Shown: positions 1 to 46,988, numbered from the stretch's first letter. The stretch: 64,000 bases of DNA from Ignavibacteria bacterium UBA6906 (GCA_002451155.1 DKBG01000042.1:12133-76132), one strand, 5' to 3'. The notes: a model not told the origin generated them from the letters alone. A program made the numbers and translations.

Positions 1-3000
1 GCTCCTCGCGAACCGCTCTGGGCCTTCTCGGCTCTCATTGCGGGATCGAGGAGGTCATCATCCCGGATCTGAGTTGGACATACGAACATTGTTTCCGGAC
101 AGTCACAACAGTCCCGCTTACCGAAACCTATGCGCTTGATGTCCCGCGGTTGATAGAGACGGTGCAGCGGAAGATTGCCGATAATCCCGCCTGGAATCTC
201 ACGGGAGCTGTTGCCCTGAACAACCCGCACAATGCGACGGGCCAGACATTTGATCAGGATGACATACGACGTTTGCTCTGCTGGCTCCTCGAGCACCGGG
301 TGACCGTTATTGACGACCTTGCGTACCAGAATGTTGCCGCGTCGCCGGATCTCAGCGGTCCATTGACGCTCCGCCAGATGGCGGACGACCTCCTTCGGAA
401 CGGTCAGATCTCGGGAGAGCAGGCAGAGTGTCTTATTACGGTTCATTCTGTCTCGAAAACAGATTCACTTGCCGGATCCCGGTTGGCCATTGCCGAGATC
501 CGAAACGAACGTCTTCTGGCCAGGTTCCGGCAGGTCACTGCGTCGATTTTGCCCAACGTGGGGGCTATCTTCCTTTCATACCTTTTCTACCGTCGCCCGG
601 TTGACGATGTCCGCCATTACTGGAAGCTTCGGAATAGTATCTTCGACACCAGAATGCACGCCCTCGAGGAGGCGGTCGAGAATATCCCCGCCGCCCGGAA
701 CCGCTACGGGATCACCATCCGCCGTCCAACCGGAAGCATGTATCCGCTCATGGTTATCTCCCGGCTTCCAGCAGGGCTTTCCCTCGACTGGCTTTCCGCC
801 GGACTGGCACGGCAGGGAATCGGATTGCTGCCACTGTCAGCCTTTGCACGCACGGAGGATGGTTTCGAAACCGGACGAAAGACTTTCCGGTTGACGCTGG
901 GAGGAAGCGACAGCGCGGATCGGCTCCTGCCGAAAACCAGGAGAGTCCTCATTGATCTCAACCGGATGATCGCCGATGAGGAGTCCAGGTACAACAGACG
1001 CGTGCCGTCAGGCCGGACCGGCCGGTCGGGTTCTCCAGCAGTGCATACGGAGGTCGCCGCACGGTGGGATGCACTGTTGCAGAAGGTAACACAGGAGTGC
1101 GCTGCCGCTGCGCGCACGCATCGGGAACGAACATTCGGGCTGACCGGCAGGGCCCCGGAGGTGAATAGTTTTCTCGATCGCTCGCTGCCGGAACGTTTAC
1201 AGACCGTGCGGCAGCGTTTTGCCGACCGTGCCGCTCATGTGGCGGATCTCCTTGCCTTCACGCGGACGGATGGCGGCAAGGAGCTCGTACGGGTCCTCGA
1301 GCGCGAATTCTACAAAGACCATCTCACATCACGGCAGCAGCGATTTCAATCAAGGCCGTACGACCGGACCGTTCACCCGACCCAGATGTACTCCCTCCGG
1401 GCGGAAATGCTCTGGGATTCTGCGATCGAATCCATCCTGGCACATTCGGATACGCCTGGAACTCTCCCAAAGCAGATCGCACGCGCCCTGTTCAGGGAAT
1501 ATGCGGGGATGGACGTGGCAATCGGCTCTGCTGATGAAGGGGACGAACTGCTGTGCGACCTGGACCGGCTTATCGCGGCGGAAGATTTTCTGTCCATCCA
1601 CGGGGAAGCCTCCTCTCCTTCGTTTCTTTCCTACTGGGGCGACTGGGATGGAAGCACCCGTCCATCCGGCCAGGGGCACAGACTGGTGGCAACGATCCTC
1701 GTCGCGAACGTTGAACGCCTGGCCCGGCTGCTCAGAATGCTCTACGATCAGAATCGCTCTCTTGCCATCGACCCCGCGCTGCTACGGGACATGGAACAGC
1801 TTCCGGTCCGTTCCTCCCGATTTCGAAAACTCCTCGATGAAATCACGATCCTGACCCATCAGCTGGAGCGGAGATATAAGGGGCTTCTCCCGTTCCATAT
1901 CACTCCGAGCCGGCTCCGGAGGGTGGGCATGCAGCTCCACCTCGCCCGCGATCCCCTGACCACACTCTGGCAGCACAACGACCGTCTCGAACGCCGGATG
2001 CTTGCGCTCCGGGAGGAGCGCAAGCGCGCGCTGCAGTATTACTTCAGTCTGAACAAACAGCTGCGGAAGGCGCTGCATTCACACCTCCCATCGCTCCGCT
2101 CCAGCCTCGGGAACCCGGACCTCGCGATTCGCGCGGCATCCTACCGGGACCTCTTGCAGCGTTTCGTGATCACTCCACGGATCCACCAGAACATGGTCAC
2201 CGCTCAGGATCCGTTCGCCATTGACACGACGGTCCACAACATCATGGAGATCAACGAGATCAGCGGGGCATCAGGAAATCCGGGAATGATCCTTGCCCTC
2301 CAAATCAGCATGTCCACCGAACCGGAGGCCCTGATCACGCTGGACCGGAAGACCAGGGCGCAGAGGGACAACGTGTTCCGCGGCCGCCCGGACCTGGAAC
2401 TGCCCGGGGTCTGGCTGATTCCGCTCTTTGAAGATCTGAACGCCGTCACCGCGATCCCCCGCTACCTGGACAAGATCTGGGAGTATGCCGTGCAGAGCCG
2501 GCGGCTAAGCCAGGAAGTCTCCGCCCGATTCAGAGAGATGGTGTGTGAGGTATTCATCGCCGGCTCTGACCTGAGCCAGCAGGTCGGGCAGACCGCCGGC
2601 GCTATGATCTTTCGAGAGGCGAAGTACCAGATTGTCCGCTGGCTCGCGGACAGAGGTCTCGTCAGTGATGTGCGGGTGAAAATGGGGTGTGGCGAACCGA
2701 TGCAGAGGCAGGGCGGATACTACGCACCCGCGTCAGGCAGGCCCGCCTTCATCCGCTCACGGGAAAACGATGCGCGACTGGCGCGCCACGTCCGGGAATC
2801 CACCCGGCGGAGCACCCGGTATGCAACAACACCCCTTATGGGTGTGTTCTCGGGAGGGGACCTACGCACATTTCAGAGCGCCGTCTCGGAGCAGCTCCGC
2901 TCGCTTCCGGTGAAGGAATATGCGGACCTTCTCTACCACGTCCGCGCCGCACAATACTTCCACTCCCACGAGCTATCACGAGCTGCCGAGCCGTTCGTCG

Positions 3001-4244
3001 AGACGCGATTGAAGTTCAGCGCGCGGGGAGAACAGGAAATTGAGCGTCTCACCATTGGGCGCCGCGATCCGCTCTTTGAGGAATTTTCCAAGAGTGCGAC
3101 AGAGAATTTCCGGACGATCGTTTACGGACGCGAAGAAGATGTTGTGGGAATACATCTGATTTCCTACTTCATCGCGCGGACTACGCCCTCACTCAGGGAC
3201 AGACCGACCTTCCGCCCCGGCAAGGGTGTAGCCGAAAGTCAGGGCCAACTGATCATCGGACGGATCGCCGAGACCATCCCCCTGGCAAAGCACGGAAGCC
3301 TCCTGCGGGCCATCGCCCACAATCAGGCACAGACGTTTCTCCTCGGCATCAACCAGCTTACCACCGGCCTGTTCCGTGCCCTCGACACGTTCGCGCAGAC
3401 GCAGTTCGTGGAGGGGAAAGGTGAATACCTGATCGCGGACCGGGTGCTTCCAAACCTTCCGGTCTACGAGATGCTCCACACGCTGCGCCTGTATCAGGAC
3501 ATGGATCTGACGTATCTGAAGCAAATGGAACGAGCCTTCCCGGCGGGGAATTCCTGTTTCACTGTCCTTCGCGAAGATCTCGATTCGCTCCGGCGCTACG
3601 TCGGACCGCTGCAGAAGGAGCTGATCCGCCGGCACGGGATCGCGGTCGCCGACTTCTTTGAGGGGGACCGGTTTATTGCCGACCTTCTGCCCACTCTCCG
3701 TCCAGACCTGGCTGTCCTGATGCAGCCGGACCTTTTTAACAGGAGCTATGACCTGCTTGAGGGACAGATCGACGGACCGGTAGACGAGAACTGGAAGGGA
3801 GAAATGTGTCGACTACTTGCGATGCCGGAGGAAGTTGCACTCTGGCGCGGCCGGGCATGGGAACTCCTTGAGCGCCCGGTATATGGACGGCTCGAAAGCT
3901 TTGTCGAGCTCGCCCTTGCCCTTTCCTCTCTCCCGGGCCGCCTGGACCAGCGGGAGAGTGAGGGCCGTGCCTCCCTGACTCGCAGACTCCGGGGACAGCC
4001 GGCCATGCAGGAGTTTCTCACGTCCACTCAAGATGACTCCATGCGCGAGTTTCTCGCTGCCGCGTTTGAGTACCTCTCCGGCCTGTCACGAAACCGCATG
4101 GAAGTACCAACGAGTGTCATTAAAGCCCTCAAAGACATCGAGAAGATCATCGGGATCGAAGAACAGGCACTTTCGACCCGCGAGCAGGACCTTCTTCGCT
4201 TCTTCCTCCTCAAGATCGCGCGACTCTGCGGCGAGAACGGTTGA
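1..4244 (+). CDS. Large multidomain protein, 5' end outside the window. The N-terminal part is a class I/II aminotransferase-like PLP domain. The C-terminal ~1000 aa is a divergent phosphoenolpyruvate-carboxylase-like domain.
   Basis: The reading frame is open from nt 1 through the listed TTG at 150 with no stop, so the gene starts upstream. Aminotransferase motifs: NNPHNATGQ (NPxNPTG-like), SVSKTDSLAGSRL (SxSK PLP-lysine motif) and a downstream FRLTLGG arginine. PEPC-like motifs in PEPC order: TVHPTQ (compare TAHPTE), IPLFEDLNAV (compare PLFETxxDL), FIAGSDLSQQVGQTAG (compare GYSDSxKDAG), KMGCGEPMQRQGGYYAP (a degenerate FHGRGGxxGRGGxP loop), SLLRAIAHNQAQTFLLGI (compare LRAIPWIFAWTQNRxxLPxWLG), and a C-terminal ...ENG (compare ...NTG). 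Ends with TGA at 4242-4244. Confidence 0.6.
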   Translation, partial: SSRTALGLLGSHCGIEEVIIPDLSWTYEHCFRTVTTVPLTETYALDVPRLIETVQRKIADNPAWNLTGAVALNNPHNATGQTFDQDDIRRLLCWLLEHRVTVIDDLAYQNVAASPDLSGPLTLRQMADDLLRNGQISGEQAECLITVHSVSKTDSLAGSRLAIAEIRNERLLARFRQVTASILPNVGAIFLSYLFYRRPVDDVRHYWKLRNSIFDTRMHALEEAVENIPAARNRYGITIRRPTGSMYPLMVISRLPAGLSLDWLSAGLARQGIGLLPLSAFARTEDGFETGRKTFRLTLGGSDSADRLLPKTRRVLIDLNRMIADEESRYNRRVPSGRTGRSGSPAVHTEVAARWDALLQKVTQECAAAARTHRERTFGLTGRAPEVNSFLDRSLPERLQTVRQRFADRAAHVADLLAFTRTDGGKELVRVLEREFYKDHLTSRQQRFQSRPYDRTVHPTQMYSLRAEMLWDSAIESILAHSDTPGTLPKQIARALFREYAGMDVAIGSADEGDELLCDLDRLIAAEDFLSIHGEASSPSFLSYWGDWDGSTRPSGQGHRLVATILVANVERLARLLRMLYDQNRSLAIDPALLRDMEQLPVRSSRFRKLLDEITILTHQLERRYKGLLPFHITPSRLRRVGMQLHLARDPLTTLWQHNDRLERRMLALREERKRALQYYFSLNKQLRKALHSHLPSLRSSLGNPDLAIRAASYRDLLQRFVITPRIHQNMVTAQDPFAIDTTVHNIMEINEISGASGNPGMILALQISMSTEPEALITLDRKTRAQRDNVFRGRPDLELPGVWLIPLFEDLNAVTAIPRYLDKIWEYAVQSRRLSQEVSARFREMVCEVFIAGSDLSQQVGQTAGAMIFREAKYQIVRWLADRGLVSDVRVKMGCGEPMQRQGGYYAPASGRPAFIRSRENDARLARHVRESTRRSTRYATTPLMGVFSGGDLRTFQSAVSEQLRSLPVKEYADLLYHVRAAQYFHSHELSRAAEPFVETRLKFSARGEQEIERLTIGRRDPLFEEFSKSATENFRTIVYGREEDVVGIHLISYFIARTTPSLRDRPTFRPGKGVAESQGQLIIGRIAETIPLAKHGSLLRAIAHNQAQTFLLGINQLTTGLFRALDTFAQTQFVEGKGEYLIADRVLPNLPVYEMLHTLRLYQDMDLTYLKQMERAFPAGNSCFTVLREDLDSLRRYVGPLQKELIRRHGIAVADFFEGDRFIADLLPTLRPDLAVLMQPDLFNRSYDLLEGQIDGPVDENWKGEMCRLLAMPEEVALWRGRAWELLERPVYGRLESFVELALALSSLPGRLDQRESEGRASLTRRLRGQPAMQEFLTSTQDDSMREFLAAAFEYLSGLSRNRMEVPTSVIKALKDIEKIIGIEEQALSTREQDLLRFFLLKIARLCGENG

Positions 4245-4294: not shown

Positions 4295-6625
4295 TCAGTC
4301 CACCTGAATCTCATCCAGAAAGAGCCACGCTTTCTTTCCCGCACCCGGATGCCACGGCGGGCAAACCCTGATGGCCCTGGCCGTAATCCGCACGTATCGT
4401 GCCCAGGTCGGCTCACACACTTTCGCCAACCCCTTAATAAACGGCTCTTTTGTGTCGAGCGGAGTGTCATTCGTGAATTCCGCGACGTGGAGATACGATT
4501 CTCCGTCGCTTGATACCGCAAACGACACCGCCGCGGGCAGGAATACCCAGCTGACAGAGTTCTGGAGGAAATTTACTCCGATCCGGGAGACTTCCTGCGA
4601 CCTTCCGAGATCTACGACTGCCTCAACATCGGTTCCCTCAAATCCCTGCCAGTTCCCGTCGCCGAGGTTACGTGAGCCGAAGACCCCGTTTGTAAGACCC
4701 AAGCTCCCTCCCGCCGTATATATTGCACTGTGGGGTGGTGTCAGTCGGACGGCTTTCCCCGTCGCGCGGCTGAACCGATAGTGAATCGTGGACGGGGTGC
4801 TCAGACATGATTTCCCTTCGAACGCGGCGGCGCGCAGCGTCGAGGTACTGGCAAGCCGGACCGGACCGACATACTCCGGAGATTCCGGTGTGGGTTCGGT
4901 GCCGTCGAGCGTGTATCGCAGGTTCGCCCGGAGGTATTCGCACTCGAGGTGAACATCGAGCGCCGGGATCGCGGGATCAAGCAGTGCTTTCGCGTTGACG
5001 GAAAAAAGACTCCGTGCACTGTTGATCCGGTGAGCAGCAAGCCGGGAAAAATGCGCCGGAAGCCGGGAAGCGAAATCCTCCCATGATCTCCGGTCCTCGG
5101 GAGACCAGAGGACCTCTGCAAGCGCACAGAGTCTCGGGAGTGCCATGTACTGAACGCGCTCAAAAGTCTCTATGTACTCCGTCCAGACATTTCCCTGGGC
5201 ACCGAGGATGTGCTTTTGTTCGGCAGCCGTCAGCCCTGGGGGGATCGGCTCATACGTGTAGACTTTGCGGATCGTCGTGAAGCCACCGATGGCGCGCGGC
5301 TCAAGTGCCTGGTTCCCCTGATAGTAATCAAAGTAACAGTGCGTGGAGGGCGTCATGATCGCGTCATGCCCCTGTCTCGCTGCTGCCAACCCTCCGTCGA
5401 TCCCCCTCCACGACATGACGGTCGCCTCCGGCGCAAGTCCACCTTCAAGGATTTCATCCCATCCAATCACGCGACGGCCGCGGGAATTGAGAAATTTCTC
5501 GATGCGCGTAATGAAATAACTCTGCAGTTCTGATTCATCCTTCAGGCCTTCGGCACGGATCCGCTCCTGACAGCGAGGACATTCCTTCCATCGGGTCTTC
5601 GGGACTTCGTCGCCCCCAATGTGGACGTATCTCCCCGGAAACAGGCCGCAAATTTCGGACAGGACATTCTGGAGAAACTCAAACGTCCGGTCGTTCCCCG
5701 CACAGAAGACGTCATCATAGACACCCCAGCGCGTTCCAACATCAAACGGTCCGCCTGTGCACGAAAGTCCAGGATACGCCGCCAGGGCCGCCAGCGAATG
5801 ACCGGGCATCTCGATCTCGGGGATGATCTCCACATACCGTTCCCGCGCGTACCTGACGACATCCCGGATCTCATCCTGCGTATAGAATCCACCGTAGACC
5901 GACCCGTCAGGGACTGCGCGCCACGCACCGACGGATGTCAGGAGGGGGTACGTCTTGATCTCGACCCGCCATCCCTGGTCTTCTGTGAGATGCCAGTGAA
6001 AACGGTTCATCTTGTGCATTGCCAGGATATCGATATATTTCTTCACCGAATCGACCGGGAAGAAATGCCGGCCCACATCGAGATGCATTCCCCTGTATCC
6101 GAAGCGGGGGTGGTCCTCGATGACGACACAGGGAATGCTGGTCCAGTGTTCTCGCTCCGACGCGTCCTTCTCCGGCACCCCGGCTGTAAGCAGCTGGCGG
6201 AGGGTTTGAATTCCATAGAACACACCGGGGGCACCGGAAGACGTTATGCGCACGCCCCTCGGCGTCACCGTCAGATTGTACGCCTCGGTTCGGTCTGCAG
6301 CTGAGTCCTTCTTCACCGAGAGGTGAATGTCGTGAGCCCGACCAGCGCCGATGACGACCCTCAGCGGCACGCCGGTTATTGCTCCGAGCACATTCGCCGC
6401 ATAGGAGGCCACCTGTGCGAGTTCACTGTCAGGCGAGACGACGGCAATGCGACTGTCGGGACGCACGCGAAACACACTCCCATGAACAGTCATCCTGGCC
6501 GGTATCGGAATCACCGATAGGGCCGGGGGGGGCTGGCGGTCACCGGAGGTGTTCGCGATCGCAAGACCTGCAGAGGCAACGAGCGTCAGGAGCGCTGAAC
6601 GGAAGGTGTACATCGGGCTCTCCAT
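4295..6625 (-). CDS. beta-N-acetylhexosaminidase, glycoside hydrolase family 20, with a C-terminal F5/8 type C (discoidin) domain and a signal peptide
   Basis: GH20 catalytic motif HIGGDE (RYVHIGGDEVPK) inside a TIM-barrel-like region. The N-terminal hydrophobic leader LLTLVASAGLAIA looks like a signal peptide. The C-terminal ~150 aa have a discoidin-like composition. Confidence 0.85.
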   Translation of the reverse strand: MESPMYTFRSALLTLVASAGLAIANTSGDRQPPPALSVIPIPARMTVHGSVFRVRPDSRIAVVSPDSELAQVASYAANVLGAITGVPLRVVIGAGRAHDIHLSVKKDSAADRTEAYNLTVTPRGVRITSSGAPGVFYGIQTLRQLLTAGVPEKDASEREHWTSIPCVVIEDHPRFGYRGMHLDVGRHFFPVDSVKKYIDILAMHKMNRFHWHLTEDQGWRVEIKTYPLLTSVGAWRAVPDGSVYGGFYTQDEIRDVVRYARERYVEIIPEIEMPGHSLAALAAYPGLSCTGGPFDVGTRWGVYDDVFCAGNDRTFEFLQNVLSEICGLFPGRYVHIGGDEVPKTRWKECPRCQERIRAEGLKDESELQSYFITRIEKFLNSRGRRVIGWDEILEGGLAPEATVMSWRGIDGGLAAARQGHDAIMTPSTHCYFDYYQGNQALEPRAIGGFTTIRKVYTYEPIPPGLTAAEQKHILGAQGNVWTEYIETFERVQYMALPRLCALAEVLWSPEDRRSWEDFASRLPAHFSRLAAHRINSARSLFSVNAKALLDPAIPALDVHLECEYLRANLRYTLDGTEPTPESPEYVGPVRLASTSTLRAAAFEGKSCLSTPSTIHYRFSRATGKAVRLTPPHSAIYTAGGSLGLTNGVFGSRNLGDGNWQGFEGTDVEAVVDLGRSQEVSRIGVNFLQNSVSWVFLPAAVSFAVSSDGESYLHVAEFTNDTPLDTKEPFIKGLAKVCEPTWARYVRITARAIRVCPPWHPGAGKKAWLFLDEIQVD

Positions 6626-6669
6626 GGGAACAATTCACAGAACATGAACAAATCGGTTTCATTACCAGC

Positions 6670-7770
6670 TCAATCACGCCAGAGTTTCGAATCTTGCCGA
6701 ACATGCCATCGCTGCACGTGCTTGCCAGCCAGGCGAAGAGTCACTGCAGCTTCGTATCCATCCGGAGCAGCCTGGAGCGTCACCTGACCCAGCCGATCGT
6801 CTCCGGGGGGTTGACGAAAGCGGAGATCCTTGAGACTCTCCGCCCAGGTCCCGTGCGCCGTGCGGTAGTCCCGCTGAAGCTCGTATATCTGCATCAGGAG
6901 TTCTTTCGCACCCCACGCGGAATCTGCCAGGAACAGTCCGGATGCGTCATCGGCGAACTGCACATATCCCCAGCGTTCCGGCCGATGCATGTCAACGACT
7001 CCCTGTGGTGACCAGACCCAGTTGTGCTCCGGCCGGCCCGGGATCTTCCTGTAGTGCCCATCCTCTATCCGGACATCCCATTCCACCCGGGAGAAGTTGA
7101 TTCTCCAGCTATCACCAATCTCCGGAGGCGCCGGGCAATGTGCATAGGTCAGGAGTGACTGCCAGGGAATCGCCAGCTCGACACTCCAGCCGGTATCGAC
7201 ATCGGAAGCGGCGTTGAGGGTTCCTGCCACGTGAACGGCAGTCCTGAGCCCGACAATATCCCACGAGTCAACTGGGGGTCCCCCATCGCGATACGGTTTC
7301 GGGAGGAAAAGATCCCACCCTGTGTTCAGGGCGTTCATCTCAAACTCATAGTATTCGTGGTTGTCCCCGTTCGGGTCGATGAAGACCTCGAAATCGTTAT
7401 CCTGAAAGATCACCGTATCACGTTGCCGCAGGGTCGCCCACACATGAGGCTCCTGAAGTTCCGCGGCCACGTACAGATACTCACTGTCCCAGAGCATTTT
7501 CACCCTGGTCCGGAATGTCGGAGGTGGCATTCCCTCCCCCTCAATGTCAACGAAATTGTCGGTCCACAGAGCCCGGGTCCAGGCAGACTCGGAGAGTCTG
7601 CCATCAATCGTCAGCGGCTCAGCGGCAAACAGGCATAGATACCCTTTTGGGCGGGTGGTGATCGGCTGGCCGAAGGCGGAATTCATCCCTGCAATGATGA
7701 GCAGAGAGAGGGTAGCGAGACAGAGCCGGGCAGTAGCGCTGCGGCGGCGGACGAGTCTGGATTTTCTCAT
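6670..7770 (-). CDS. CBM9-like (carbohydrate-binding family 9 / DOMON-like) secreted protein
   Basis: The ORF track extends to 7926, but a signal-peptide-like start MRKSRLVRRRSATARLCLATLSLLIIAG maps to ATG at 7768-7770. That start overlaps the upstream fucosidase stop as ATGA. The motif FQDNDFEVFIDPNGDNHEYYEFEMNALNTGWDLFL is typical of CBM9 / family-9-like binding domains. Confidence 0.65.
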   Translation of the reverse strand: MRKSRLVRRRSATARLCLATLSLLIIAGMNSAFGQPITTRPKGYLCLFAAEPLTIDGRLSESAWTRALWTDNFVDIEGEGMPPPTFRTRVKMLWDSEYLYVAAELQEPHVWATLRQRDTVIFQDNDFEVFIDPNGDNHEYYEFEMNALNTGWDLFLPKPYRDGGPPVDSWDIVGLRTAVHVAGTLNAASDVDTGWSVELAIPWQSLLTYAHCPAPPEIGDSWRINFSRVEWDVRIEDGHYRKIPGRPEHNWVWSPQGVVDMHRPERWGYVQFADDASGLFLADSAWGAKELLMQIYELQRDYRTAHGTWAESLKDLRFRQPPGDDRLGQVTLQAAPDGYEAAVTLRLAGKHVQRWHVRQDSKLWRD

Positions 7771-9329
7771 CTGTCCGGGGCCGCGATGTTGTAGACGGAG
7801 ACTGTTGAAAGAGTGGGGCAGGCGCGCGATTGGCGTATCGTGACGCGGATGCAGGATGTCCGAACCGGGGGGAAGAGGAGAATTCGCCTTGCTCCGACCG
7901 TTGTTCCCTCCGCGACGGTTGTCCATCCCCTGTTCCCACGGACATCGATCCCAAACGCTTCGATTCGCTGACCGAGGGAGATCTGTTCCCGGAGAAGGAG
8001 AGCGTTAATCTCCCGCTCGGCGCCGAGATCTATTTCCACCCATCCCGTGTGGATGGAGTCATCGGTTGCCCAGTACGTTTGGGGACGGCCATCTACTGTG
8101 CGAACGGCGGCATACTCCAGATCACCGCCGCGGGTATTCGAGGCCGTGGCGGGGCGTCCTGCTGCCAGATCCTCTCTGAATGCAAAATCGAGGTATGCGC
8201 GAAGGGCGTGCAGCTGCCGCGCATCGTTGTCGGGTATCAGTCCGCGCCGATCGACGGGGATGTTCAGCAGAAGATTCGCGTTGCGCCCCACGGAGGCGAA
8301 ATAGATTCCGACCAGCGTTTTGAGGTCTCTGACGAGCGAATCCTCGGCGGCGTGATAGTACCACCCGGGCCGAATCGATACGTCGCATTCCGCAGGGACC
8401 CAGGCATCCCCATCGGCATGTCCGCTGGGAAGTTCATGAAAACGTTCATAGCCGGGATAGACTTCATCGCGTCGCAGAAAGGACCAGTTGGTCTCGCCCG
8501 CGGCTCCCTGTTCATTGCCCACCCAGCGGACATCCGGACCGGCATCACTGAAGATGACTGCCCGCGGCTGGCATTCCCGCACCACCGTGACAAACCCTGG
8601 CCAATCGTAGACCTGTCGCTTCCCGTTTGGTCCTTCTCCGCATGCACCGTCGAACCAGACTTCGAAAACCTCTCCATATCCGGTGAGGACTTCACGCAAC
8701 TGGTTCTTGAAATGCTCGTTATACGCCGGGGAATCACCGTACCGTGGATCGTGCCGGTCCCAGGGAGAGAGGTACACTCCGAACTTCAGCCCGAATTCCC
8801 TGCATGCGTCCGAGAGTTCCCGAAGCACGTCGCCTCGCCCTGAGCGGAACGGGCTGTTCCGGACCGTGTGCTCTGTGAAGGCCGAAGGCCAGAGACAGAA
8901 TCCGTCATGGTGTTTTGCCGTCAGGACTATCCCTCTCATTCCGGCTTCTTTGCAGACACGCGCCCACTGGCGGCAATCAAGGTCGACGGGATCAAATAGG
9001 GCAGGCATTTCTGTGCCGTCACCCCATTCCCGGTCGGTGAATGTGTTCATGTTGAAATGGACGAAGGCATAGTACTCGAGGTCCTGCCAGAGAAGCTGAC
9101 GTTCCGAAGGAACGGGGCTAACGGGGCGCGGTGGGTCGATCCGTTCGCCCCCAGGTGCACCCGCCCGGATACATGGAAGCAGGAGCAGCAAACCGAAGCA
9201 GAAGCGCAGGAGATGTTTCAGCTGACTCTCATCCGCACCGAGCGATGCGTCGGATCTTCCTTCCATCGCGGAGGTTGTCCTGCTCTCGATCGTCTGAACC
9301 ATATTCTCATTCCCCGTGCCAAACGGCAT
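7767..9329 (-). CDS. alpha-L-fucosidase, glycoside hydrolase family 29, with a C-terminal F5/8 type C domain
   Basis: GH29 signature LTAKHHDGFCLWPS. The hydrophobic N-terminal segment LRFCFGLLLLLPCIRAG suggests a signal peptide, so the true start may be an internal Met near 9266. The C-terminal ~130 aa are discoidin-like. Confidence 0.85.
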   Translation of the reverse strand: MPFGTGNENMVQTIESRTTSAMEGRSDASLGADESQLKHLLRFCFGLLLLLPCIRAGAPGGERIDPPRPVSPVPSERQLLWQDLEYYAFVHFNMNTFTDREWGDGTEMPALFDPVDLDCRQWARVCKEAGMRGIVLTAKHHDGFCLWPSAFTEHTVRNSPFRSGRGDVLRELSDACREFGLKFGVYLSPWDRHDPRYGDSPAYNEHFKNQLREVLTGYGEVFEVWFDGACGEGPNGKRQVYDWPGFVTVVRECQPRAVIFSDAGPDVRWVGNEQGAAGETNWSFLRRDEVYPGYERFHELPSGHADGDAWVPAECDVSIRPGWYYHAAEDSLVRDLKTLVGIYFASVGRNANLLLNIPVDRRGLIPDNDARQLHALRAYLDFAFREDLAAGRPATASNTRGGDLEYAAVRTVDGRPQTYWATDDSIHTGWVEIDLGAEREINALLLREQISLGQRIEAFGIDVRGNRGWTTVAEGTTVGARRILLFPPVRTSCIRVTIRQSRACPTLSTVSVYNIAAPDR

Positions 9330-9458
9330 ACCGCGTCTGATAATGCATCAATATCGGAGATTGAACGCACGGACGCAATTCCTGTTTGAGAGGGCGGCCG
9401 CCTGAAACACAACGGGCTCTCCGATGGAGAGCCCGTATCCGAGTGAGGGGACCGCCGC

Positions 9459-9884
9459 CTACTTTGGTTCGCGCGGTTTCGCTTCCTGCATTTCCCGGGT
9501 CTGCGCTTCCGACCCTTGCTTTTCCCGCATCTCGTTTTCGTACCGGTCCTGGAGGAAGGTATAGAGCTTCTGCTTTGTCTTTGGATACTGAGACAGCTGA
9601 GAGGAGGTAAGAATCGATCCTACTTTTTGTCCGAATTCCATGGTCACCTGCTTGCGCATTTTGGCGACCATTTCAGGCTTTCCGAAATACTGCTGTTCAT
9701 ATTTTGCCATTTCGGAATCGGATTCCTTGAGGAACTGCCGTGCCTTCGATTGCTGGTCGGGCGACAAACGGAGATCCGTTGTCAGGAATTGAATGAGTTT
9801 GTCCTGCATGTCAGCGCGTGTCTGCGCCTGAGCCACCGCACCGGTCAGCAGGAGACCTGCCAGGAGAATCGCGGTATGTCGCAT
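9459..9884 (-). CDS. small secreted/periplasmic protein of unknown function (Lys/Gln-rich, LxxxQ-type repeats)
   Basis: Signal peptide MRHTAILLAGLLLTGAVAQAQ, followed by a charged, helical-looking sequence. A hairpin lies downstream at 9413-9434. Confidence 0.5.
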   Translation of the reverse strand: MRHTAILLAGLLLTGAVAQAQTRADMQDKLIQFLTTDLRLSPDQQSKARQFLKESDSEMAKYEQQYFGKPEMVAKMRKQVTMEFGQKVGSILTSSQLSQYPKTKQKLYTFLQDRYENEMREKQGSEAQTREMQEAKPREPK

Positions 9885-10004
9885 GATATTGTCCCCTTCC
9901 CCGAGTAAGAAACCTGTCTGATGTCAATCATCCAAGATACGGCCGGGGAGGACCAGAATCAAATGGGCAGAAAGCCATTCCCGGACACTCTCCGGCATGC
10001 GACC

Positions 10005-10874
10005 TTACGGTCGTGGACCTGTAGCAATATTCTTGAGGTATCGCTGAAGGTCTGCGATGTCATTTCGGCTGGTCAGGTCCGGCACATGTTCACGCAGGGG
10101 TATCGTCTGAACCGAAGCGGTCCCTGCCCCGAGCATCATCATCACTGCCGTCGGCAGTTCCTTCTCTTTGCGCAGCGGATGATACGGGACGGCTTCCAGG
10201 AACGGGAGTATCCGGTCGAACACAAAGCGCCAGATGTTCATGCTCACGCCAACCCTGCCGGTCGCCTCCCTTGTCTGCGCGATATGCGCGGCATCGGGCT
10301 TTTCGGTGATCGTTCGAAGCGTACCGTCAGGATTCGTCACGATGACGGCAAAGGCTTCGATCCGTTCACGGCTAAACAGAAGGCCTTCGCGATCATAGTC
10401 GATCATTGCACACTCAGCATTCGTGGTCCTGAGCAGCTCGAATGCTGCACGAGAATAGAGGTTGTCGCTGTTGCAGACCGTGAACTGCTGGCCTGCCCAA
10501 TCGGGTCTTGTGCGGAGCGCCTGCAGCAATGCATCCGCTGTGCCGGCCGGTTTTGAACGCCCGGCAGGGACTTCCTGGACGGCATAGGAAATCTCCATGC
10601 CTCGATACGGGTTGTCCCGTTCCCTCGCCCCGTAATGCGCCCGAACTGATCGGTCCTCAGGACTGACAACAATAACGGTATCAGTATATCCCGCTGCCAC
10701 CGCGTTCTCAAGAAGGTAATCCATGAGGGGACGTCCGTCGACACCGAGGCCAATCATCGCCTTTGTCTTTCTGTCGGCCTGGCCTTCCAGGTCGGCGCCC
10801 AATGTAACTGATGCGGGCACCTTCATCCGGGACGCAGCACCTCCCGCGAGGATGACAAGGTTTCCTTCGTTCAT
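10005..10874 (-). CDS. sugar-1-phosphate nucleotidyltransferase (NTP_transferase family)
   Basis: N-terminal LVILAGGAASRMK plus GLGVDGRPLMDYLLEN, the G-x-G-x-R-x-K nucleotide-binding signature of sugar-phosphate nucleotidyltransferases. Its start overlaps the upstream kinase stop by 4 nt (ATGA), indicating translational coupling. Confidence 0.75.
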   Translation of the reverse strand: MNEGNLVILAGGAASRMKVPASVTLGADLEGQADRKTKAMIGLGVDGRPLMDYLLENAVAAGYTDTVIVVSPEDRSVRAHYGARERDNPYRGMEISYAVQEVPAGRSKPAGTADALLQALRTRPDWAGQQFTVCNSDNLYSRAAFELLRTTNAECAMIDYDREGLLFSRERIEAFAVIVTNPDGTLRTITEKPDAAHIAQTREATGRVGVSMNIWRFVFDRILPFLEAVPYHPLRKEKELPTAVMMMLGAGTASVQTIPLREHVPDLTSRNDIADLQRYLKNIATGPRP

Positions 10875-11971
10875 GGCCCATTCCCCTCCTTCCTGGCACT
10901 TGTCCCCGCGTCCGGTCTGATTATGTAGGCCTGTCCACCCACATCTTCAATCGCGCGGCGGACCCTGTCGGGGTTGTCCGGAGCGTACGCGAACATGCAT
11001 CCACCGCCGCCGGAGCCGTTAATCTTTCCCCCCAGCGCTCCGGCAGAGATCGCAGCTGAGATCATCCTGTCAATCCGGGGGGTTGAGATACGGAGGACTT
11101 CACGAAGGACCGTCTGGTGTTCGGTCAGAAGTTCTCCTAGTTTTCGATGGTCAACTTCGACCCGCCCGAGCATCTTTCGCGCCTCCTCAGTCATCGAATG
11201 GTTGCGGATAGTTCCGAGCAACAATGTTTTCTCATCAGGAGTGAGGTCGGCCGCAACGCCTTCGATATCCTCAGCGGTGGAATTCTTCAGCGTGAATCCG
11301 GGATACTGAGAATTCAGCCGGGCTACAAGTGATCGCACGCCCTGTTTTACCCGGGCTAGGATTCCCTTGGTATCCTTCGGTTCCCGGGAATCCCCCAGGA
11401 CGAATGTGCCGAGGTCAGCCTTCAGGCGACGGACCTGAACGAGGGGGTCGAAATCGATCACGATCACGCCTCCATATGCCGTAGAGAAATGATCCATCAT
11501 CCCTCCGGGCTCGCCGAACTCCAGCACTTCCGCCTCATGCGCGAACCGGGCAATCGCATCCGGTCCGAGATCCGTCGACTGATCGCTCATGCGGGCAAGA
11601 AAATCGATCCACGCCACAACGAGAGCTGAGGAGCTTGAGGTGCCGGAATTTATCGGAATTTCGCCGTGCACAGTGCATTCGACGCCGCGTGAAAAAGAGA
11701 ACCCCTGGCGCAGCAGCACATTCACCGCGCTCTTGAAATAGTCCCTCTCTTTGGAATACGGAAGCCTCTCTCCCAGAACAAATGTTTCCCTGCTGCTGAC
11801 GTCAGGCAGGTCCACCACCGCGGCCCGGTCACTCCTGTGCCTTCCCTCAATAGTGATTCGCAATGAGATCGCGCAGGGGATGACCGGAAGAGCGAGGTAA
11901 TCTTGATGCTCTCCGAACAGGCAGATTCGTCCGGGGCTTGTCACATGCAGGTATTTTGAACCGGGCTTCAT
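10871..11971 (-). CDS. GHMP-family sugar 1-kinase (galactokinase/fucokinase-like)
   Basis: Galactokinase-type motif RICLFGEHQDYL (compare GRVNLIGEHTDY). GHMP phosphate-binding loop PINSGTSSSSALVVAW. C-terminal GKINGSGGGGCMFAYAP. Confidence 0.8.
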   Translation of the reverse strand: MKPGSKYLHVTSPGRICLFGEHQDYLALPVIPCAISLRITIEGRHRSDRAAVVDLPDVSSRETFVLGERLPYSKERDYFKSAVNVLLRQGFSFSRGVECTVHGEIPINSGTSSSSALVVAWIDFLARMSDQSTDLGPDAIARFAHEAEVLEFGEPGGMMDHFSTAYGGVIVIDFDPLVQVRRLKADLGTFVLGDSREPKDTKGILARVKQGVRSLVARLNSQYPGFTLKNSTAEDIEGVAADLTPDEKTLLLGTIRNHSMTEEARKMLGRVEVDHRKLGELLTEHQTVLREVLRISTPRIDRMISAAISAGALGGKINGSGGGGCMFAYAPDNPDRVRRAIEDVGGQAYIIRPDAGTSARKEGNGP

Positions 11972-12148
11972 TGAGGAGCGGGGGACTCGCGCCGTTCAAT
12001 ATCTTTGTTTTCATTCCAAGTTTCAAGGCGGACGGAGAGGAAACGCAGCAGACAGAACGAGGAGATTCGGAGAACATTCTTGGCGAGCGATGTGTTCATT
12101 CGGCGTCTGTGCGGTACTCTCCACAGGGGGACAGATGGAATTCACTCC

Positions 12149-12177
12149 TTGACATCCGCCAGCATTACTCCTATAAT
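12149..12177 (+). promoter_or_regulatory. near-perfect sigma-70-type promoter (TTGACA, 17-nt spacer, TATAAT) upstream of a lipoprotein gene
   Basis: TTGACA at 12149-12154, a 17-nt spacer, then TATAAT at 12172-12177. It sits in the divergent intergenic region, about 78 nt upstream of the ATG at 12255. Confidence 0.55.
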
Positions 12178-12957: not shown

Positions 12958-13539
12958 ATGAAACCACTCTTCCTTATTCTCCTCGGCAGCATGATGTTCG
13001 TCCCACAGAACCCCCTGTTCAGCCAGCCCGGCTGGGCCCTTGACAAGGGGAGCGTCGCGGTCGGCGGAACCGCTTCCGTGAGCGTCGCAGGAGGCTTGAT
13101 CCAGGGGTTCAATGACAAGACAACGGTGGATCTGAAGCCGTTCGCCTACTGGTTCACGAGCCCGAACGTCGGCGTCGGTGGAGAGCTGTACCTGAGCAGT
13201 TCCTCCCGCAAAGACGGCGAGTCATCTACGACGATTGCCATCGGACCGAGCGTGCTCCTGGCGTTCGCCGACTCGAGCTACACCTGGTATCCATTTCTGC
13301 AGCTGGGGGGATTGTTCGCATCAGTCTCCGAAAAGTCCCCCTATGTCGAATCAGGGAACCAGAAATCAGGAACCGGGTTTGCGCTGGAGCTTGGCGGAGG
13401 CGGGACGTACATGCTGGGCCGGAGGGCGGGGATAACCGTACAGCTCTACTATCAGGCTCAGTGGATCACCATCGCGTCGGAGGCGAAGACCGGCAAGCTA
13501 TACGGGATGCGTGTTGGTGTTACAGGATTTATCTTCTGA
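12958..13539 (+). CDS. small outer-membrane beta-barrel protein (OmpW/OmpA-N-like porin-family fold)
   Basis: Signal peptide MKPLFLILLGSMMFVP, Gly/aromatic-rich alternating pattern, and a C-terminal ...GVTGFIF with a terminal Phe as in OM beta-barrels. Confidence 0.6.
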   Translation: MKPLFLILLGSMMFVPQNPLFSQPGWALDKGSVAVGGTASVSVAGGLIQGFNDKTTVDLKPFAYWFTSPNVGVGGELYLSSSSRKDGESSTTIAIGPSVLLAFADSSYTWYPFLQLGGLFASVSEKSPYVESGNQKSGTGFALELGGGGTYMLGRRAGITVQLYYQAQWITIASEAKTGKLYGMRVGVTGFIF

Positions 13540-14473: not shown

Positions 14474-15124
14474 TTATAGAGAGAAGCTCAGGCCTCCTGA
14501 AAAATTGAACTCGGCGAAGGGAATCCCTGCCGATACGCCGAGCCCGGCCCCGCCTGTCCCGACGTAGAAGCCCCCTCCGTAGAACACGAGGGGAAAGAGT
14601 ACCTGGCCCTGGAGCTTCAGAGCAATCTTCTCCGAGAGGGAAATCTTTGCTCCACCTCCCAGCTGCATGGCTGCCCGCCAAACGGACTCCAGCGACGCAT
14701 ACTTCGGCTGAGCCCAGACGGCGCCACCCCCGACGGAGACGTACGGGTTCACTTTTGCCATCGGCTTGATTTCACGTACGAAGTTCAGCATGAAATACTG
14801 CATGGTCACGTCGAACCCGAAATCATCGTACCTGCCCGATTGCGAAATGAAGTCCGAGGTCGTGCTGTGATAGAGGTACTGGAGCTCTACCTGCATCCCG
14901 CGTTGAACATCAAATGCGATCGTCCCGCCAAACGCGGGATTATCTCTCGTGTTTACATATCCGTATGCCACGGTCATGTTTGTATTGAGCATGTACCCCG
15001 CATAGGGAGTGATCTCGACCGATCGCTCCTTCGGCGCGTAATAGACCTGCGCTTCAGCTGCAAGCAGCGCGAAGTGCATGAGACACGCTGTAAGGATGAC
15101 AATTCTCTGTATGCTTTTCATCAA
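14474..15124 (-). CDS. outer-membrane beta-barrel protein, tandem paralog B
   Basis: See paralog A. Signal peptide MMKSIQRIVILTACLMHFALLAAEAQ. Confidence 0.65.
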   Translation of the reverse strand: MMKSIQRIVILTACLMHFALLAAEAQVYYAPKERSVEITPYAGYMLNTNMTVAYGYVNTRDNPAFGGTIAFDVQRGMQVELQYLYHSTTSDFISQSGRYDDFGFDVTMQYFMLNFVREIKPMAKVNPYVSVGGGAVWAQPKYASLESVWRAAMQLGGGAKISLSEKIALKLQGQVLFPLVFYGGGFYVGTGGAGLGVSAGIPFAEFNFSGGLSFSL

Positions 15125-16299: not shown

Positions 16300-16920
16300 T
16301 CAGAAACGGCTCCAGACCAGGCCGACTCTGAAGACGAAATACTGCTGTGTATTGTCTTCGTTTCCATAGGCAGTCTGCCCGGAGTCAAACGCGTGCGTGT
16401 AGCTAGCCGCGACCATTCCGTCAACGTCCCCGAGAGGGATGATGACGCCCACTTCCGGCTTCAGGGTGAAATGCCAGTTATAGGTGGTCAGCGAATAGAG
16501 TCCGAGATCCCATCTCTGGTCGATGTACGTCATCCCGGCCCCCAGTCCTGCGTACGGCCGAATTTCTTGTCGATCCTTCGAGAGATAGTACTGCGCCGTT
16601 ACGAGCAGCGGCAGGGCATTCGTCCCTCGTACCTGAGTTCCGCTGATTGCCCCGTTCGGCAGTTGAAGCAGATCCGTTGATTTCACGGACTGTATATGCC
16701 ACCCGAATTCAAAGCCGATAGAAAATTGACGGTCGAGAAACCGCCGGGCTTCAAATGCCACGCCACGCCACTGGAGGCCGTCGATAAAGTCCGCGGAATT
16801 GCCGACCGGGAGAGTAACGTCATACGTCAGGCTTGTCATGTTGCTGTACTGGGCGAGCGACGAGTTGCCGGCAACCAGGACAAGGGTGAGGAATAGGATA
16901 CTCAATAAGTGTTTTGTCAT
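16300..16920 (-). CDS. outer-membrane beta-barrel protein (porin-family fold)
   Basis: Signal peptide MTKHLLSILFLTLVLVAGNSSLAQ, alternating hydrophobic pattern, and a C-terminal ...GLVWSRF. Confidence 0.6.
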   Translation of the reverse strand: MTKHLLSILFLTLVLVAGNSSLAQYSNMTSLTYDVTLPVGNSADFIDGLQWRGVAFEARRFLDRQFSIGFEFGWHIQSVKSTDLLQLPNGAISGTQVRGTNALPLLVTAQYYLSKDRQEIRPYAGLGAGMTYIDQRWDLGLYSLTTYNWHFTLKPEVGVIIPLGDVDGMVAASYTHAFDSGQTAYGNEDNTQQYFVFRVGLVWSRF

Positions 16921-20542: not shown

Positions 20543-21277
20543 TCAGTCCGGAATGCTGCTGACCTCGCGGGCCGCATCATCAAGATCTTCCGGCGTATCG
20601 ATTTCGATGCACCGCAGCGGTCCCACATCGACGGCCGCGATACGGTCTCCTTCCTGGATCAGCCGTTGAAAGGCCGCTTCGTAGAAGAGATTTTCCTGAC
20701 CGTCTTTCCCAACCATCCTGTCCAGCAGGCGGTAGAGTCTCGAGACTGATTCCTGGCTGAACCGTTCGATTCCGATTGATTCTCCCGCCGCCCGGGACGG
20801 GTCGACCTCTTTCCCGATTTCCCGCACCCACACGCCCGACCCGGTCAGGACCTTGATCTCCTCCGCGCCGAGCCGGCGATCCGTGCGGAGCGCGAGAGCG
20901 TTGACGTAGGGGGCGGTCAACAGCAGCGCAACGATACGCCGGTCAAACAGAATGTCACTGTCGAGCAGGAGCATCTCATCCCCCACGACTGCCGACTTCG
21001 CAAGCCAGAGGGAGTAGATGTTGTTGGTTGCCTCGAACCGCGAATTATGGACGAACGTCACACGGAGGTCCGGAAACGATCCGGCGAGAAACGTCCGCAC
21101 ATGATCAGCGAGATAGCCGGTCACGACGACGAGATCCCGTATCCCGTTCGCGATCAGGTTGTCAACCGTACGCTCAAGAATGCTCCTGTCACCCACAGGC
21201 AGGAGGCATTTCGGAGTATCATTAGTCAAGGGGCGAAGCCGCGAGGCCACCCCGGCTGCAAGGATCAGGGCGCGCAT
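20543..21277 (-). CDS. nucleotidyltransferase (cytidylyltransferase-like, NTP_transferase family); third gene of the head-group operon
   Basis: MRALILAAGVASRLRPLTNDTPKCLLPVGDRSILERTV, the G-x-G-x-R-L/P-K signature of LicC/IspD/GlmU-type transferases. Its start shares one base with the upstream stop (TAATG). Confidence 0.75.
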   Translation of the reverse strand: MRALILAAGVASRLRPLTNDTPKCLLPVGDRSILERTVDNLIANGIRDLVVVTGYLADHVRTFLAGSFPDLRVTFVHNSRFEATNNIYSLWLAKSAVVGDEMLLLDSDILFDRRIVALLLTAPYVNALALRTDRRLGAEEIKVLTGSGVWVREIGKEVDPSRAAGESIGIERFSQESVSRLYRLLDRMVGKDGQENLFYEAAFQRLIQEGDRIAAVDVGPLRCIEIDTPEDLDDAAREVSSIPD

Positions 21278-22167
21278 TACGGTTCACTCATACCGAGACG
21301 GGAGTCAATCCCGTTCTGCACCAACTTCAGCAGAATCGCGGCGACGTTGCCGATCAGCACGATCGCCCAGAGATAGAGGTCCAAGCGGTTCACCAGCGAT
21401 GCGACAATCAGAAGACTGATTTGGGTGGTCGGGCCTAGGAACGTCCAGAAAAACATGATCCGTCTGTTTGCCCGGACAAATTCCGCACGATCCGCGCGCG
21501 GGCGCCGTGCACTCAGCTGTTTCTGCGTAATGAGCAATTGTTGCAGGCCGGAATACCGAAGATAGATCCAGAGAAGTCCTCTGAGGACTGGTTTTCTATT
21601 CTCCCGGCTGAGCAGATCATACTCGCCGTGAAGGTCGTCGAGGTCTTTCTTGAGCACGCTGGCCCGGTCACGAGTGATATCGAGATACCGGTTCCGGTAA
21701 AAGTCGAGGAGCCCCGACTGGATTGCGTTGCTCAGTGCGGCTGCCACAACACATGTCCAGAGGAGAGCAGGAGTTTCGGACCGGCTGGCATAGCCGAACC
21801 CGATGCCCAAATACACTGCAATGCTTACGATGTAGTCCGAAATGCCGTCCAGGATACGTCCGAGCCGGCTTCCGTTCGCCTTCATCCGCGCAAGCATGCC
21901 GTCCGCACAATCCAGCACGTTAAAGAGCACCAGGAGCCCCGCAGCGACCATGAACGCGGTTGGGGATTCCAGTACGTAGACCGCGCCGGCGAGGATACCC
22001 AGCATTCCCGCCAGGACGGTCACCTGGTTGGGCGTGACCGGAGTGAGGGCTGCGAGTCGGACGAGGAGAAAGGCGAGGGGACGAAAGAAGACCAGGTCAA
22101 GAATTTCCTCGACCTCGACCCCCTTCAGCGTACTCTGATACTCACGCAGCAGTGAGAGAGCCGACAC
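21277..22167 (-). CDS. CDP-alcohol phosphatidyltransferase family membrane protein
   Basis: Signature D-G-x2-A-R-x8-G-x3-D-x3-D is present as LDCADGMLARMKANGSRLGRILDGISDYIV, with multiple hydrophobic helices. Confidence 0.8.
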   Translation of the reverse strand: MSALSLLREYQSTLKGVEVEEILDLVFFRPLAFLLVRLAALTPVTPNQVTVLAGMLGILAGAVYVLESPTAFMVAAGLLVLFNVLDCADGMLARMKANGSRLGRILDGISDYIVSIAVYLGIGFGYASRSETPALLWTCVVAAALSNAIQSGLLDFYRNRYLDITRDRASVLKKDLDDLHGEYDLLSRENRKPVLRGLLWIYLRYSGLQQLLITQKQLSARRPRADRAEFVRANRRIMFFWTFLGPTTQISLLIVASLVNRLDLYLWAIVLIGNVAAILLKLVQNGIDSRLGMSEP

Positions 22168-22170
22168 GGT

Positions 22171-30312: not shown

Positions 30313-30315
30313 GCC

Positions 30316-40417: not shown

Positions 40418-40466
40418 CCGGACAGGATCAGTTCCTCCGCTGTGATTCAGCGGGGGAGCGTCCTCA

Positions 40467-43017: not shown

Positions 43018-43029
43018 TGCGCCCTCGTC

Positions 43030-45318: not shown

Positions 45319-45357
45319 GATCCCACGGTCTCGGCCGGGCCGATCGCGGGCACGCTG

Positions 45358-46332: not shown

Positions 46333-46988
46333 GGCATCCTTTGGTACGCAGTGATCAGAGAACACGGGAGCAGAAGATCCCACCGGGACGCGTCTGCTGC
46401 ACCTTTCGGGAATTTGCAGAAAAGAAGAAAACCTCTGCGGCGTAGTGCTCTAAAATAGGGGGAACTTGCATCTTTCGCAATCCATCGACCGCTGAGAATG
46501 CACTTCGGGGCCGGACCATTCCATACCCTCGGCCTGCGTGTTCGAGTCCGGCCGAACGCCCCCCTCAACAGGCTGCGGACACACCTGCCACCCTCGGAGC
46601 GGTGCTGATCCCGGCTTACGTCGACATCGAAGGCCAGGCCTATCAGCCGCGTATCGCAGGACGCTTTCCTGCGAACCGGTCGGGCACGGAGTGTCACGGA
46701 TGAATCGTTCCTTATCCGCTACACGGCGACCACAGAGCACCTCCTGTGCGTGACAGGCTCGTTCGGCGGAAGATCCCGGCAACGGGTACGGTTTCCGGAG
46801 AGGAAAGCCCGGAGAGATCAGGCAGTTCAAGGTCAGCGTCTCGCTCCTCGACTTTTGCTGACACATCTCCGGCAGGGGCCGGAGCACCCATCACGGCAAC
46901 ATGATGAGAATCCCCGTTTGCGAACCTGCCGCACCGCCACCGCCCTCCTCGGCGCTTCCGCGGCAACGGTATCGGCCAGGCGGCCGCG

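Follow-up and report, generated by a model that had tools for sequence, protein, structure and literature searches.

In a stretch of 64,000 nucleotides from Ignavibacteria bacterium UBA6906 (GCA_002451155.1 DKBG01000042.1:12133-76132), to which we refer as a whole as the window, we have analysed a pair of overlapping genes, one coding for a kinase of the GHMP family and the other for a nucleoside triphosphate (NTP) transferase, that is followed on the same strand by genes for secreted proteins of glycoside hydrolase (GH) families 29 and 20 and of the CBM9 type. The pair is probably a cassette that turns a scavenged sugar into a nucleotide sugar, the likeliest sugar being an N-acetylhexosamine (HexNAc), for example N-acetylgalactosamine (GalNAc), and not fucose. 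The general salvage logic, i.e., a sugar-1-kinase working together with a pyrophosphorylase, is well supported. For the full reading, a coupled two-step and Leloir-like cassette for the entry or salvage of amino sugars, we estimate a probability of about one half, and among the candidate substrates an amino sugar (GalNAc, galactosamine (GalN) or another HexNAc) is the best supported, from genomic context alone. An initial annotation of this region had already taken the two small genes for a sugar-1-kinase/nucleotidyltransferase unit tied to glycan scavenging, and the galactokinase (GalK) signature and residues of the kinase, its predicted fold and the recurrence of the transferase as the next gene bear this out.

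The pair was compared with related loci from GTDB species genomes (80) and from metagenomes (80). In 108 of the 130 loci whose downstream DNA extends for 1 kb or more, the transferase gene was located directly 3' of the kinase gene and on the same strand. The spacing from kinase stop to transferase start was -4 or -1 in 31 of 59 loci and fell between -8 and +6 in 45 of the 59, and the overlap class was kept in the loci L081-L084. A single 4-nt overlap is commonplace in bacterial operons, and it is the conservation of the overlap across loci, rather than the overlap itself, that exceeds chance. Such conserved translational coupling argues for consecutive steps, i.e., for a sugar-1-phosphate intermediate. 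The kinase has more than 5000 homologues, about 60% identical across the Fibrobacteres-Chlorobi-Bacteroidetes (FCB) phyla; the best 120 listed have 58-67% identity, except two at 99% and 82%. The carriers, by the labels of the genome and metagenome matches, are mostly Ignavibacteriota or Bacteroidota, with a few Balneolales, KSB1, Kryptoniota, Caldithrix or Krumholzibacteriia. Complete genomes with the pair include CP053447.1 and OY970334.1. The top identity reached in scanning genomes and metagenomes was 64%, and the protein database gave matches at 99%, 82% and 66-67% (P0001-P0004). The 99% match (L081) is from the same organism, on a contig that stops directly after the pair, while the remaining close protein matches (82%, 66-67%) lie on contigs of 2.6-3.1 kb. 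In two metagenome-assembled genomes labelled 'Cytophagia', a gene for an alpha/beta-hydrolase of 292 aa, BD-FAE/esterase-like, is placed between kinase and transferase (L036, 6213-7091; L056, 6707-7582), and may provide a deacetylase or esterase step.

The kinase matched the Pfam domains GHMP_kinases_N and GHMP_kinases_C at about 1e-14 each and the galactose-binding signature PF10509 with 38.8 bits (cut-off 23.1); it contains GHMP domains only, and no APH domain (PF01636) was found in it. As a reference, its scores against the NCBIfam equivalogs were 108.8 bits for galactokinase (TIGR00131, cut-off 226.65), 126 and 128 bits for mevalonate kinase (TIGR00549, cut-off 163, and NF003036, cut-off 403, each matched in two stretches) and 62 bits for HddA (NF049969, cut-off 600). 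All of these are below the cut-offs, so the kinase family falls outside every named equivalog. The AlphaFold (AF2) model had a predicted local distance difference test (pLDDT) score of 90, and its best 50 Foldseek matches were all galactokinases, with template modelling (TM) scores of 0.78-0.87 and with human GALK1 and the P. furiosus GalK at the top (0.8-0.87). Residues R15, E21, H22, D24, G157 and D160 align to R37, E43, H44, D46, G183 and D186 of human GALK1, which we take to be its galactose-contacting and catalytic residues. The position of GALK1 Tyr236 corresponds in the sequence alignment to K209/Q210, K209, like E154, being invariant in the family, which indicates that the pocket differs from that of a canonical GalK. 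The signature PF10509, the residue alignment to GALK1 and the Foldseek result favour the sugar-kinase side, and we infer that the protein is likely to be an anomeric sugar kinase.

The best PDB sequence match of the kinase was, however, an archaeal mevalonate kinase (4hac, 5e-24) and, together with the NF003036 score, this could suggest a non-sugar GHMP kinase, mevalonate-kinase-like, whose partner would activate a non-carbohydrate phosphate ester. We consider this extremely improbable. The equivalog matches of this type are broken in two and sub-threshold, the motifs are the PGR and GEHxDY of GalK and not the PGK and GEHAV of mevalonate kinases, the full-length structural neighbours are galactokinases, and the genes around the pair code for glycosidases and sugar transporters, isoprenoid genes being absent. 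The mevalonate-kinase reading was therefore rejected on motifs, fold and context.

The transferase scored 51.4 bits against PF00483 (cut-off 21.2), and the motifs LAGGxxSRM, GTADA and EKP are invariant in its family. It stays below the named equivalogs GalU, RmlA, GlmU, GlgC and ManC (best score 47 bits, cut-offs of at least 292), and in the PDB its closest sequence is that of 3pnn, a P. gingivalis protein that is itself uncharacterised, GlgC and GlmU being matched weakly. The AF2 model (pLDDT 86) had RmlA, GalU and the GlmU N-domain as top Foldseek matches, with TM scores of 0.65-0.72. By PF00483 and this RmlA/GalU/GlmU-like fold, the protein is predicted to be a sugar-1-phosphate nucleotidyltransferase.

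The initial annotation had gone further and interpreted the pair as a split and reversed version of Fkp, in which the kinase would make fucose-1-phosphate from the fucose released by the GH29 enzyme and the transferase would make GDP-fucose for surface glycans. The GH29 gene is located 0.7 kb downstream of the pair on the same strand, and the two-step logic is that of Fkp (PMC11982464, PMC6468028). However, the Fucokinase Pfam domain was not found in the kinase, and neither an FKP chain nor a GDP-sugar pyrophosphorylase chain was returned when the PDB was searched with either protein or its profile (up to E=1e-3 with the kinase and 1e-2 with the transferase). The kinase has kept the Glu-His pair that contacts the O6 hydroxyl of galactose, a group that fucose lacks. 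In addition, GH29 homologues were present near the pair in only 2 of the 160 loci, distant both in sequence (27-29% identity) and in position (6-9 kb off), and a terminator-like hairpin stands between the pair and the GH29 gene. The nearest relative with flanks (L082) also lacks the GH29/CBM9/GH20 block. We regard the split Fkp as very unlikely. The fallback offered in the initial annotation, i.e., GalNAc or galactose as the recycled sugar, fared better and fits the recurrent neighbours of the pair (GH109, GH36-like, DUF4832, GH20, GNAT, ROK, AgaS, NagB-like and GalE-like proteins).

These neighbours were obtained by clustering the flanking open reading frames (ORFs) and annotating the recurrent clusters, and the counts refer to the 93 loci that span 10 kb or more. 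GH109 was found in 21, a GH36 homologue in 14, DUF4874/DUF4832 in 12 and GH20 in 5, and at least one of GH109, GalNase-like, DUF4832 and GH20 was present in 40 of the 93. In Dyadobacter psychrotolerans AR-3-6 (L077), GH109 is found beside the kinase. GH109 is an alpha-N-acetylgalactosaminidase family, and the GH36-like cluster matched the solved structure 9awt ("A type blood alpha-D-galactosamine galactosaminidase") with E=5e-86. Among the metabolic and regulatory genes, NagC-like ROK proteins (21 loci), GalE/TviC-like epimerases (14) and GNAT proteins (11) were recurrent; the best score of the ROK protein was to NagC and those of the epimerase to GalE and TviC. A SIS protein belongs to the AgaS family (355 bits), a NagB-like protein whose PIG-L match was weak and sub-threshold was found in six loci, and in many loci a sodium/solute symporter (SSS) gene was located directly 5' of the kinase.

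A recurring operon (L003, L011, L019, L028, L084 and others) starts with a secreted protein carrying a type IX secretion system (T9SS) tail, a GH36-like protein, DUF4874/DUF4832 or GH109 and, in parts of the set, an APC permease and GNAT, and continues with an 884-aa melibiase-like protein, the SSS symporter, the kinase, the transferase, ROK and epimerase/AgaS/NagB-like genes; some DUF4874/4832 copies also have a T9SS tail. We take it for a possible, as yet undescribed locus for the use of alpha-linked GalN/GalNAc polymers, of the Pel or galactosaminogalactan (GAG) type. In Streptococcus intermedius, a DUF4832 protein acts as a Pel hydrolase (PMC12345266); according to the title of PMC9135694, Pel is an alpha-1,4 GalNAc/GalN polymer. 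PDB sequence searches gave no match for the 884-aa melibiase-like protein or for the DUF4874/4832 protein. Over all the neighbourhoods the common denominator is HexNAc and no single glycan. Heptose, capsule or N-acetylmuramic acid (MurNAc) genes were not noted in the annotated neighbourhoods, although no search aimed at them was made. The annotated loci are of the glycoside-hydrolase and transporter type, and on this basis, with no dedicated search for heptose genes, a heptose/capsule locus was rejected.

Plain galactose has also to be weighed. In this case the route would be an Isselbacher-type Leloir pathway that lacks GalT, with a divergent galactokinase, UDP-galactose made from UTP and a GalE-like enzyme leading to UDP-glucose. 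The kinase retains the signature for galactose binding and the residue set of GalK, the top Foldseek matches are galactokinases with bound galactose, JGI labels the kinase family 'galactokinase', and Melibiase/GH36-like hydrolases and a GalE-like epimerase are among the neighbours. No GalT-like cluster appeared among the annotated neighbour clusters, for which no GalT query was run. However, the kinase is far under the galactokinase equivalog cut-off (109 versus 227 bits), the Tyr236 position is K/Q in its family and the specific neighbours are of the amino-sugar type (GH109, the galactosaminidase homologue, GH20, GNAT, NagC-like ROK, AgaS and NagB-like proteins). We regard the galactose route as rather unlikely, and keep the amino-sugar cassette as the preferred reading.

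The amino-sugar cassette would work as follows. The galactokinase-fold GHMP kinase would act on a monosaccharide taken up by the cell, phosphorylating it at the anomeric hydroxyl, and the transferase would then join the sugar-1-phosphate with an NTP, probably UTP, to give an NDP-sugar. The likeliest substrate is an amino sugar of galacto configuration, GalNAc in the first place and perhaps N-acetylglucosamine (GlcNAc) or GalN as well. The resulting UDP-GalNAc or UDP-HexNAc could go directly to envelope glycans or, alternatively, could reach central metabolism through the GalE-like 4-epimerase and the NagB/AgaS-type enzymes of many sister loci. Outside the cytoplasm, the secreted GH29, CBM9-like and GH20 proteins would trim glycans, GH20 being the plausible supplier of the cassette substrate among the three. 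A transporter, and co-regulation of the pair with the glycosidase block, are presumed.

Six co-oriented genes span 4295-11971 of the window (Table 1), in the order of transcription GHMP kinase, NTP-transferase, 141-aa ORF, GH29, CBM9-like and GH20. The five genes named by the initial annotation were recovered by Pfam, all on the minus strand, and the two ATGA overlaps that it had reported could be read in the sequence. It had passed over the 141-aa ORF that separates the pair from GH29 and carries a signal peptide, and had put the pair after the glycosidases, when in the direction of transcription the pair comes first. Signal peptides are absent from the kinase and the transferase and present in the other four proteins. 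The Pfam bit scores of GH20 (412), GH29 (125) and CBM9_1 (53.7) were all above the gathering score; the GH20 translation shows the GGDE catalytic motif and that of GH29 a hydrophobic, signal-like N-terminus. The true start of the CBM9-like gene is the internal Met at 7770, next to which comes the signal peptide, and the protein had weak PDB matches to the CBM9 module of the T. maritima xylanase (1i82). The 141-aa ORF gave no Pfam, NCBIfam or PHROG match and had no homologue among 164 related loci.

Table 1. Genes and sequence signals around the kinase/transferase pair, in window positions.
Feature	Position	Strand	Description	Basis
GHMP-family galactokinase-like sugar kinase (putative)	10871-11971	-	366 aa, cytoplasmic	GalKase_gal_bdg + GHMP_kinases_N + GHMP_kinases_C
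Sugar-1-phosphate nucleotidyltransferase (predicted), uncharacterised subfamily	10005-10874	-	289 aa	PF00483 E=1.4e-13
ATGA stop/start overlap, kinase/transferase	10871-10874	-		sequence reading
AGGAGG motif	10885-10890	-	10 nt 5' of NTP-transferase ATG	
Candidate sigma-70-like promoter TTGAAA-17-GATATT	11998-12026	-	27 nt 5' of kinase ATG; weak	9/12 consensus matches
141-aa ORF	9459-9884	-	N-terminal signal peptide	ORF list
Terminator-like hairpin	9412-9436	-	11-bp stem, 8 GC pairs, then TGTGTTT	sequence scan
GH29 alpha-L-fucosidase	7767-9329	-	secreted, C-terminal F5/8 type C	Alpha_L_fucos E=5e-36; F5_F8_type_C E=1.6e-11
CBM9-like secreted protein	6670-7770	-	366 aa from Met at 7770	CBM9_1 E=3e-14
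ATGA overlap, GH29 stop/CBM9-like ATG	7767-7770	-		sequence reading
GH20 beta-N-acetylhexosaminidase	4295-6625	-	secreted; GH20b, CHB_HEX_C, F5/8-C domains	Glyco_hydro_20 E=2.7e-123

The case for linking the pair with the glycosidase block of the window depends mainly on the recurrent association with GH20. Homologues of the GH20 gene were found beside the pair in at least eight other loci (L009, L021, L026, L048, L069, L078, L079 and L147), in varying orders and orientations, with identities to the window GH20 of mostly 48-60% (33-37% in L009 and L078), and such recurrence in shuffled orders is a signature of functional coupling. The alternative is that the pair (alone or together with the 141-aa ORF) and the GH29-CBM9-GH20 genes are independent units that became neighbours by chance, the substrate coming from elsewhere. 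The hairpin located after the 141-aa ORF indicates that the pair and the block may be separate transcription units, gaps of 120 and 129 nt flank this ORF, GH29 and CBM9 are not recurrent neighbours, and L082 weakens the link as well. However, the hairpin is itself weak (-26.2 kcal/mol, z = -1.76, poor U-tract) and GH20 homologues recur beside the pair, and we take chance juxtaposition as a possible but doubtful explanation. Short ORFs weakly similar to the CBM9-like gene are found just 3' of the pair in L029 (11084-11872), L084 (13183-13851), L119 (2156-2944) and L131 (5256-6065).

Several observations weigh against the amino-sugar cassette itself. The hairpin may separate the pair from the glycosidases downstream, and the block is missing from L082, the closest flanked relative (64-67% identity). 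Within the window no sugar transporter adjoins the pair, and neither GH109, the GH36-like gene, DUF4832, the epimerase nor the SSS transporter is adjacent to it. A few of the sister loci have GH92/GH38 mannosidases or a DegT aminotransferase instead, so the family may lack one single substrate, and the melibiase-like neighbours with the GalE-like epimerase fit plain galactose too. At the protein level, the PDB sequence and profile searches tie the kinase with archaeal mevalonate kinases and galactokinases alike; structure and motifs favour the sugar-kinase side. The check proposed in the initial annotation, whether the kinase groups with non-sugar GHMP kinases, comes out only partly in favour of its reading. 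The kinase profile scored lower with GALK2, the human GalNAc kinase (85 bits), than with GALK1 (101 bits). The fold neighbours of the transferase are dTDP/UDP enzymes and its profile neighbours include ADP-glucose pyrophosphorylases, and its motifs do not discriminate between these nucleotides. Finally, the database labels of the two families are generic ("GHMP kinase", "sugar phosphate nucleotidyltransferase").

Regarding the rest of the window, a long ORF on the plus strand (1-4244) enters from the left edge and converges on the GH20 gene. Its first ca. 254 aa correspond to the C-terminal two-thirds of a class I/II aminotransferase, and the ca. 1100 aa that follow gave no Pfam or NCBIfam match. 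Divergent from the kinase gene there is a perfect sigma-70 consensus (TTGACA-17-TATAAT, 12/12, 12149-12177, plus strand), which would be unusual in a classical member of the Bacteroidota, whose promoters differ. Three small outer-membrane beta-barrel-like proteins are coded upstream of the kinase (12958-13539, plus; 14474-15124 and 16300-16920, minus), with OMP_b-brl or OmpW matches that are weak and mostly sub-threshold; an outer-membrane protein beside the kinase is common to the window, L081 and L082. At 20543-23214 (minus) a second NTP-transferase (244 aa), unrelated to the first, stands directly beside a CDP-alcohol phosphatidyltransferase (296 aa), followed by a class I/II aminotransferase, in what looks like a CDP-alcohol head-group cassette; L081 has the same arrangement. 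An envelope-biogenesis trio occupies 25135-32526 (plus), with a YhdP/DUF748-like protein of 1004 aa, a TamB-domain protein of 704 aa and an Omp85/POTRA protein of 736 aa. The region 37898-46383 (minus) is a glycan block of its own, in which a GH3 with a PA14 insert is accompanied by an ATP-binding cassette (ABC) permease and ATPase, a further GH3 and a ROK glucokinase-like gene, and GH3 homologues (cluster c23) are present near the pair in L026, L053 and L074.

By itself the window is an ordinary glycan-scavenging neighbourhood, and its value lies in the uncharacterised cassette. As a tentative proposal, less secure than the cassette reading, the kinase family could be the first bacterial GHMP-fold GalNAc/GalN 1-kinase, with a dedicated and unclassified pyrophosphorylase. 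The two would together be the cytoplasmic point of entry into a pathway, widespread in Bacteroidota/Ignavibacteriota, by which alpha-linked GalN/GalNAc polymers (Pel or fungal GAG types) and the HexNAc of other glycans are consumed, and would be a non-homologous replacement of NahK-LnpC. Literature searches, whose coverage leaves out most subscription-journal papers, yielded no account of the kinase/transferase family, and none of a HexNAc 1-kinase of the GHMP type in bacteria. To our knowledge, the bacterial HexNAc kinases are of the APH type. Should the assignment of the cassette prove right, a family of more than 5000 members that is now labelled generically would receive a function, and light would be thrown on the way in which Bacteroidota and Ignavibacteriota that abound in soil and sediment use amino-sugar polymers (for example, biofilm Pel or fungal GAG) as food. 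Chemoenzymatic glycan synthesis, which today depends on NahK plus GlmU or AGX1 for UDP-HexNAc analogues, would gain a compact alternative of two enzymes.

There are known systems with a similar logic. In the bifidobacterial galacto-N-biose/lacto-N-biose (GNB/LNB) pathway (NahK/LnpB, LnpC, LnpD), GalNAc and GlcNAc are phosphorylated at C1, converted to UDP-sugars, epimerised and sent to a NagA/NagB-type route, and the genes cluster with those for glycan release and uptake. However, NahK, the N-acetylhexosamine 1-kinase, has an APH/protein-kinase-like fold, whereas the kinase of the window is a GHMP protein, and LnpC is of the GalT type and uses UDP-glucose, whereas the transferase of the window is of the NTP-using pyrophosphorylase type. 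There is no sequence relationship between NahK/LnpC and the window pair, and any relation would be one of functional analogy. Human GALK2 and AGX1 are also a GHMP-fold anomeric kinase followed by an NTP-dependent pyrophosphorylase, and GALK2 (2a2c) is a detectable homologue of the window kinase (63-85 bits). However, GALK1 and mevalonate kinases are at least as close to the latter as GALK2 is, AGX1 is a UDPGP-family protein outside PF00483, and the human genes are not in an operon.

Within the Bacteroidota, the anomeric GalNAc kinase BT4240 of B. thetaiotaomicron is coded beside a GH109 alpha-N-acetylgalactosaminidase and is essential for growth on GalNAc (PMC11992087). GH109 is likewise among the commonest glycosidase neighbours of the window kinase family, but BT4240 is APH-type and the text of PMC11992087 mentions no coupled nucleotidyltransferase. 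The Fkp of Bacteroides combines GHMP kinase and NTP-transferase activities to salvage a sugar into a nucleotide sugar, as the cassette would do. It differs in being one polypeptide, with the pyrophosphorylase at the N-terminus and the GHMP kinase at the C-terminus (two genes in the window, kinase first), in having a Fucokinase domain and in using fucose and GTP, and shows no detectable similarity to either window protein. Two-gene pairs of anomeric kinase and nucleotidyltransferase are also seen in AmgK/MurU of MurNAc recycling and HddA/HddC of GDP-heptose synthesis. AmgK is APH-type; HddA is a GHMP kinase, although the window kinase is remote from its equivalog, as the scores above indicate. 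Altogether, the cassette resembles NahK-LnpC-LnpD, GALK2-AGX1, AmgK-MurU and BT4240 in its predicted function but is built from uncharacterised families, and a GHMP-type HexNAc kinase paired with a dedicated PF00483 pyrophosphorylase would represent a non-homologous variant.

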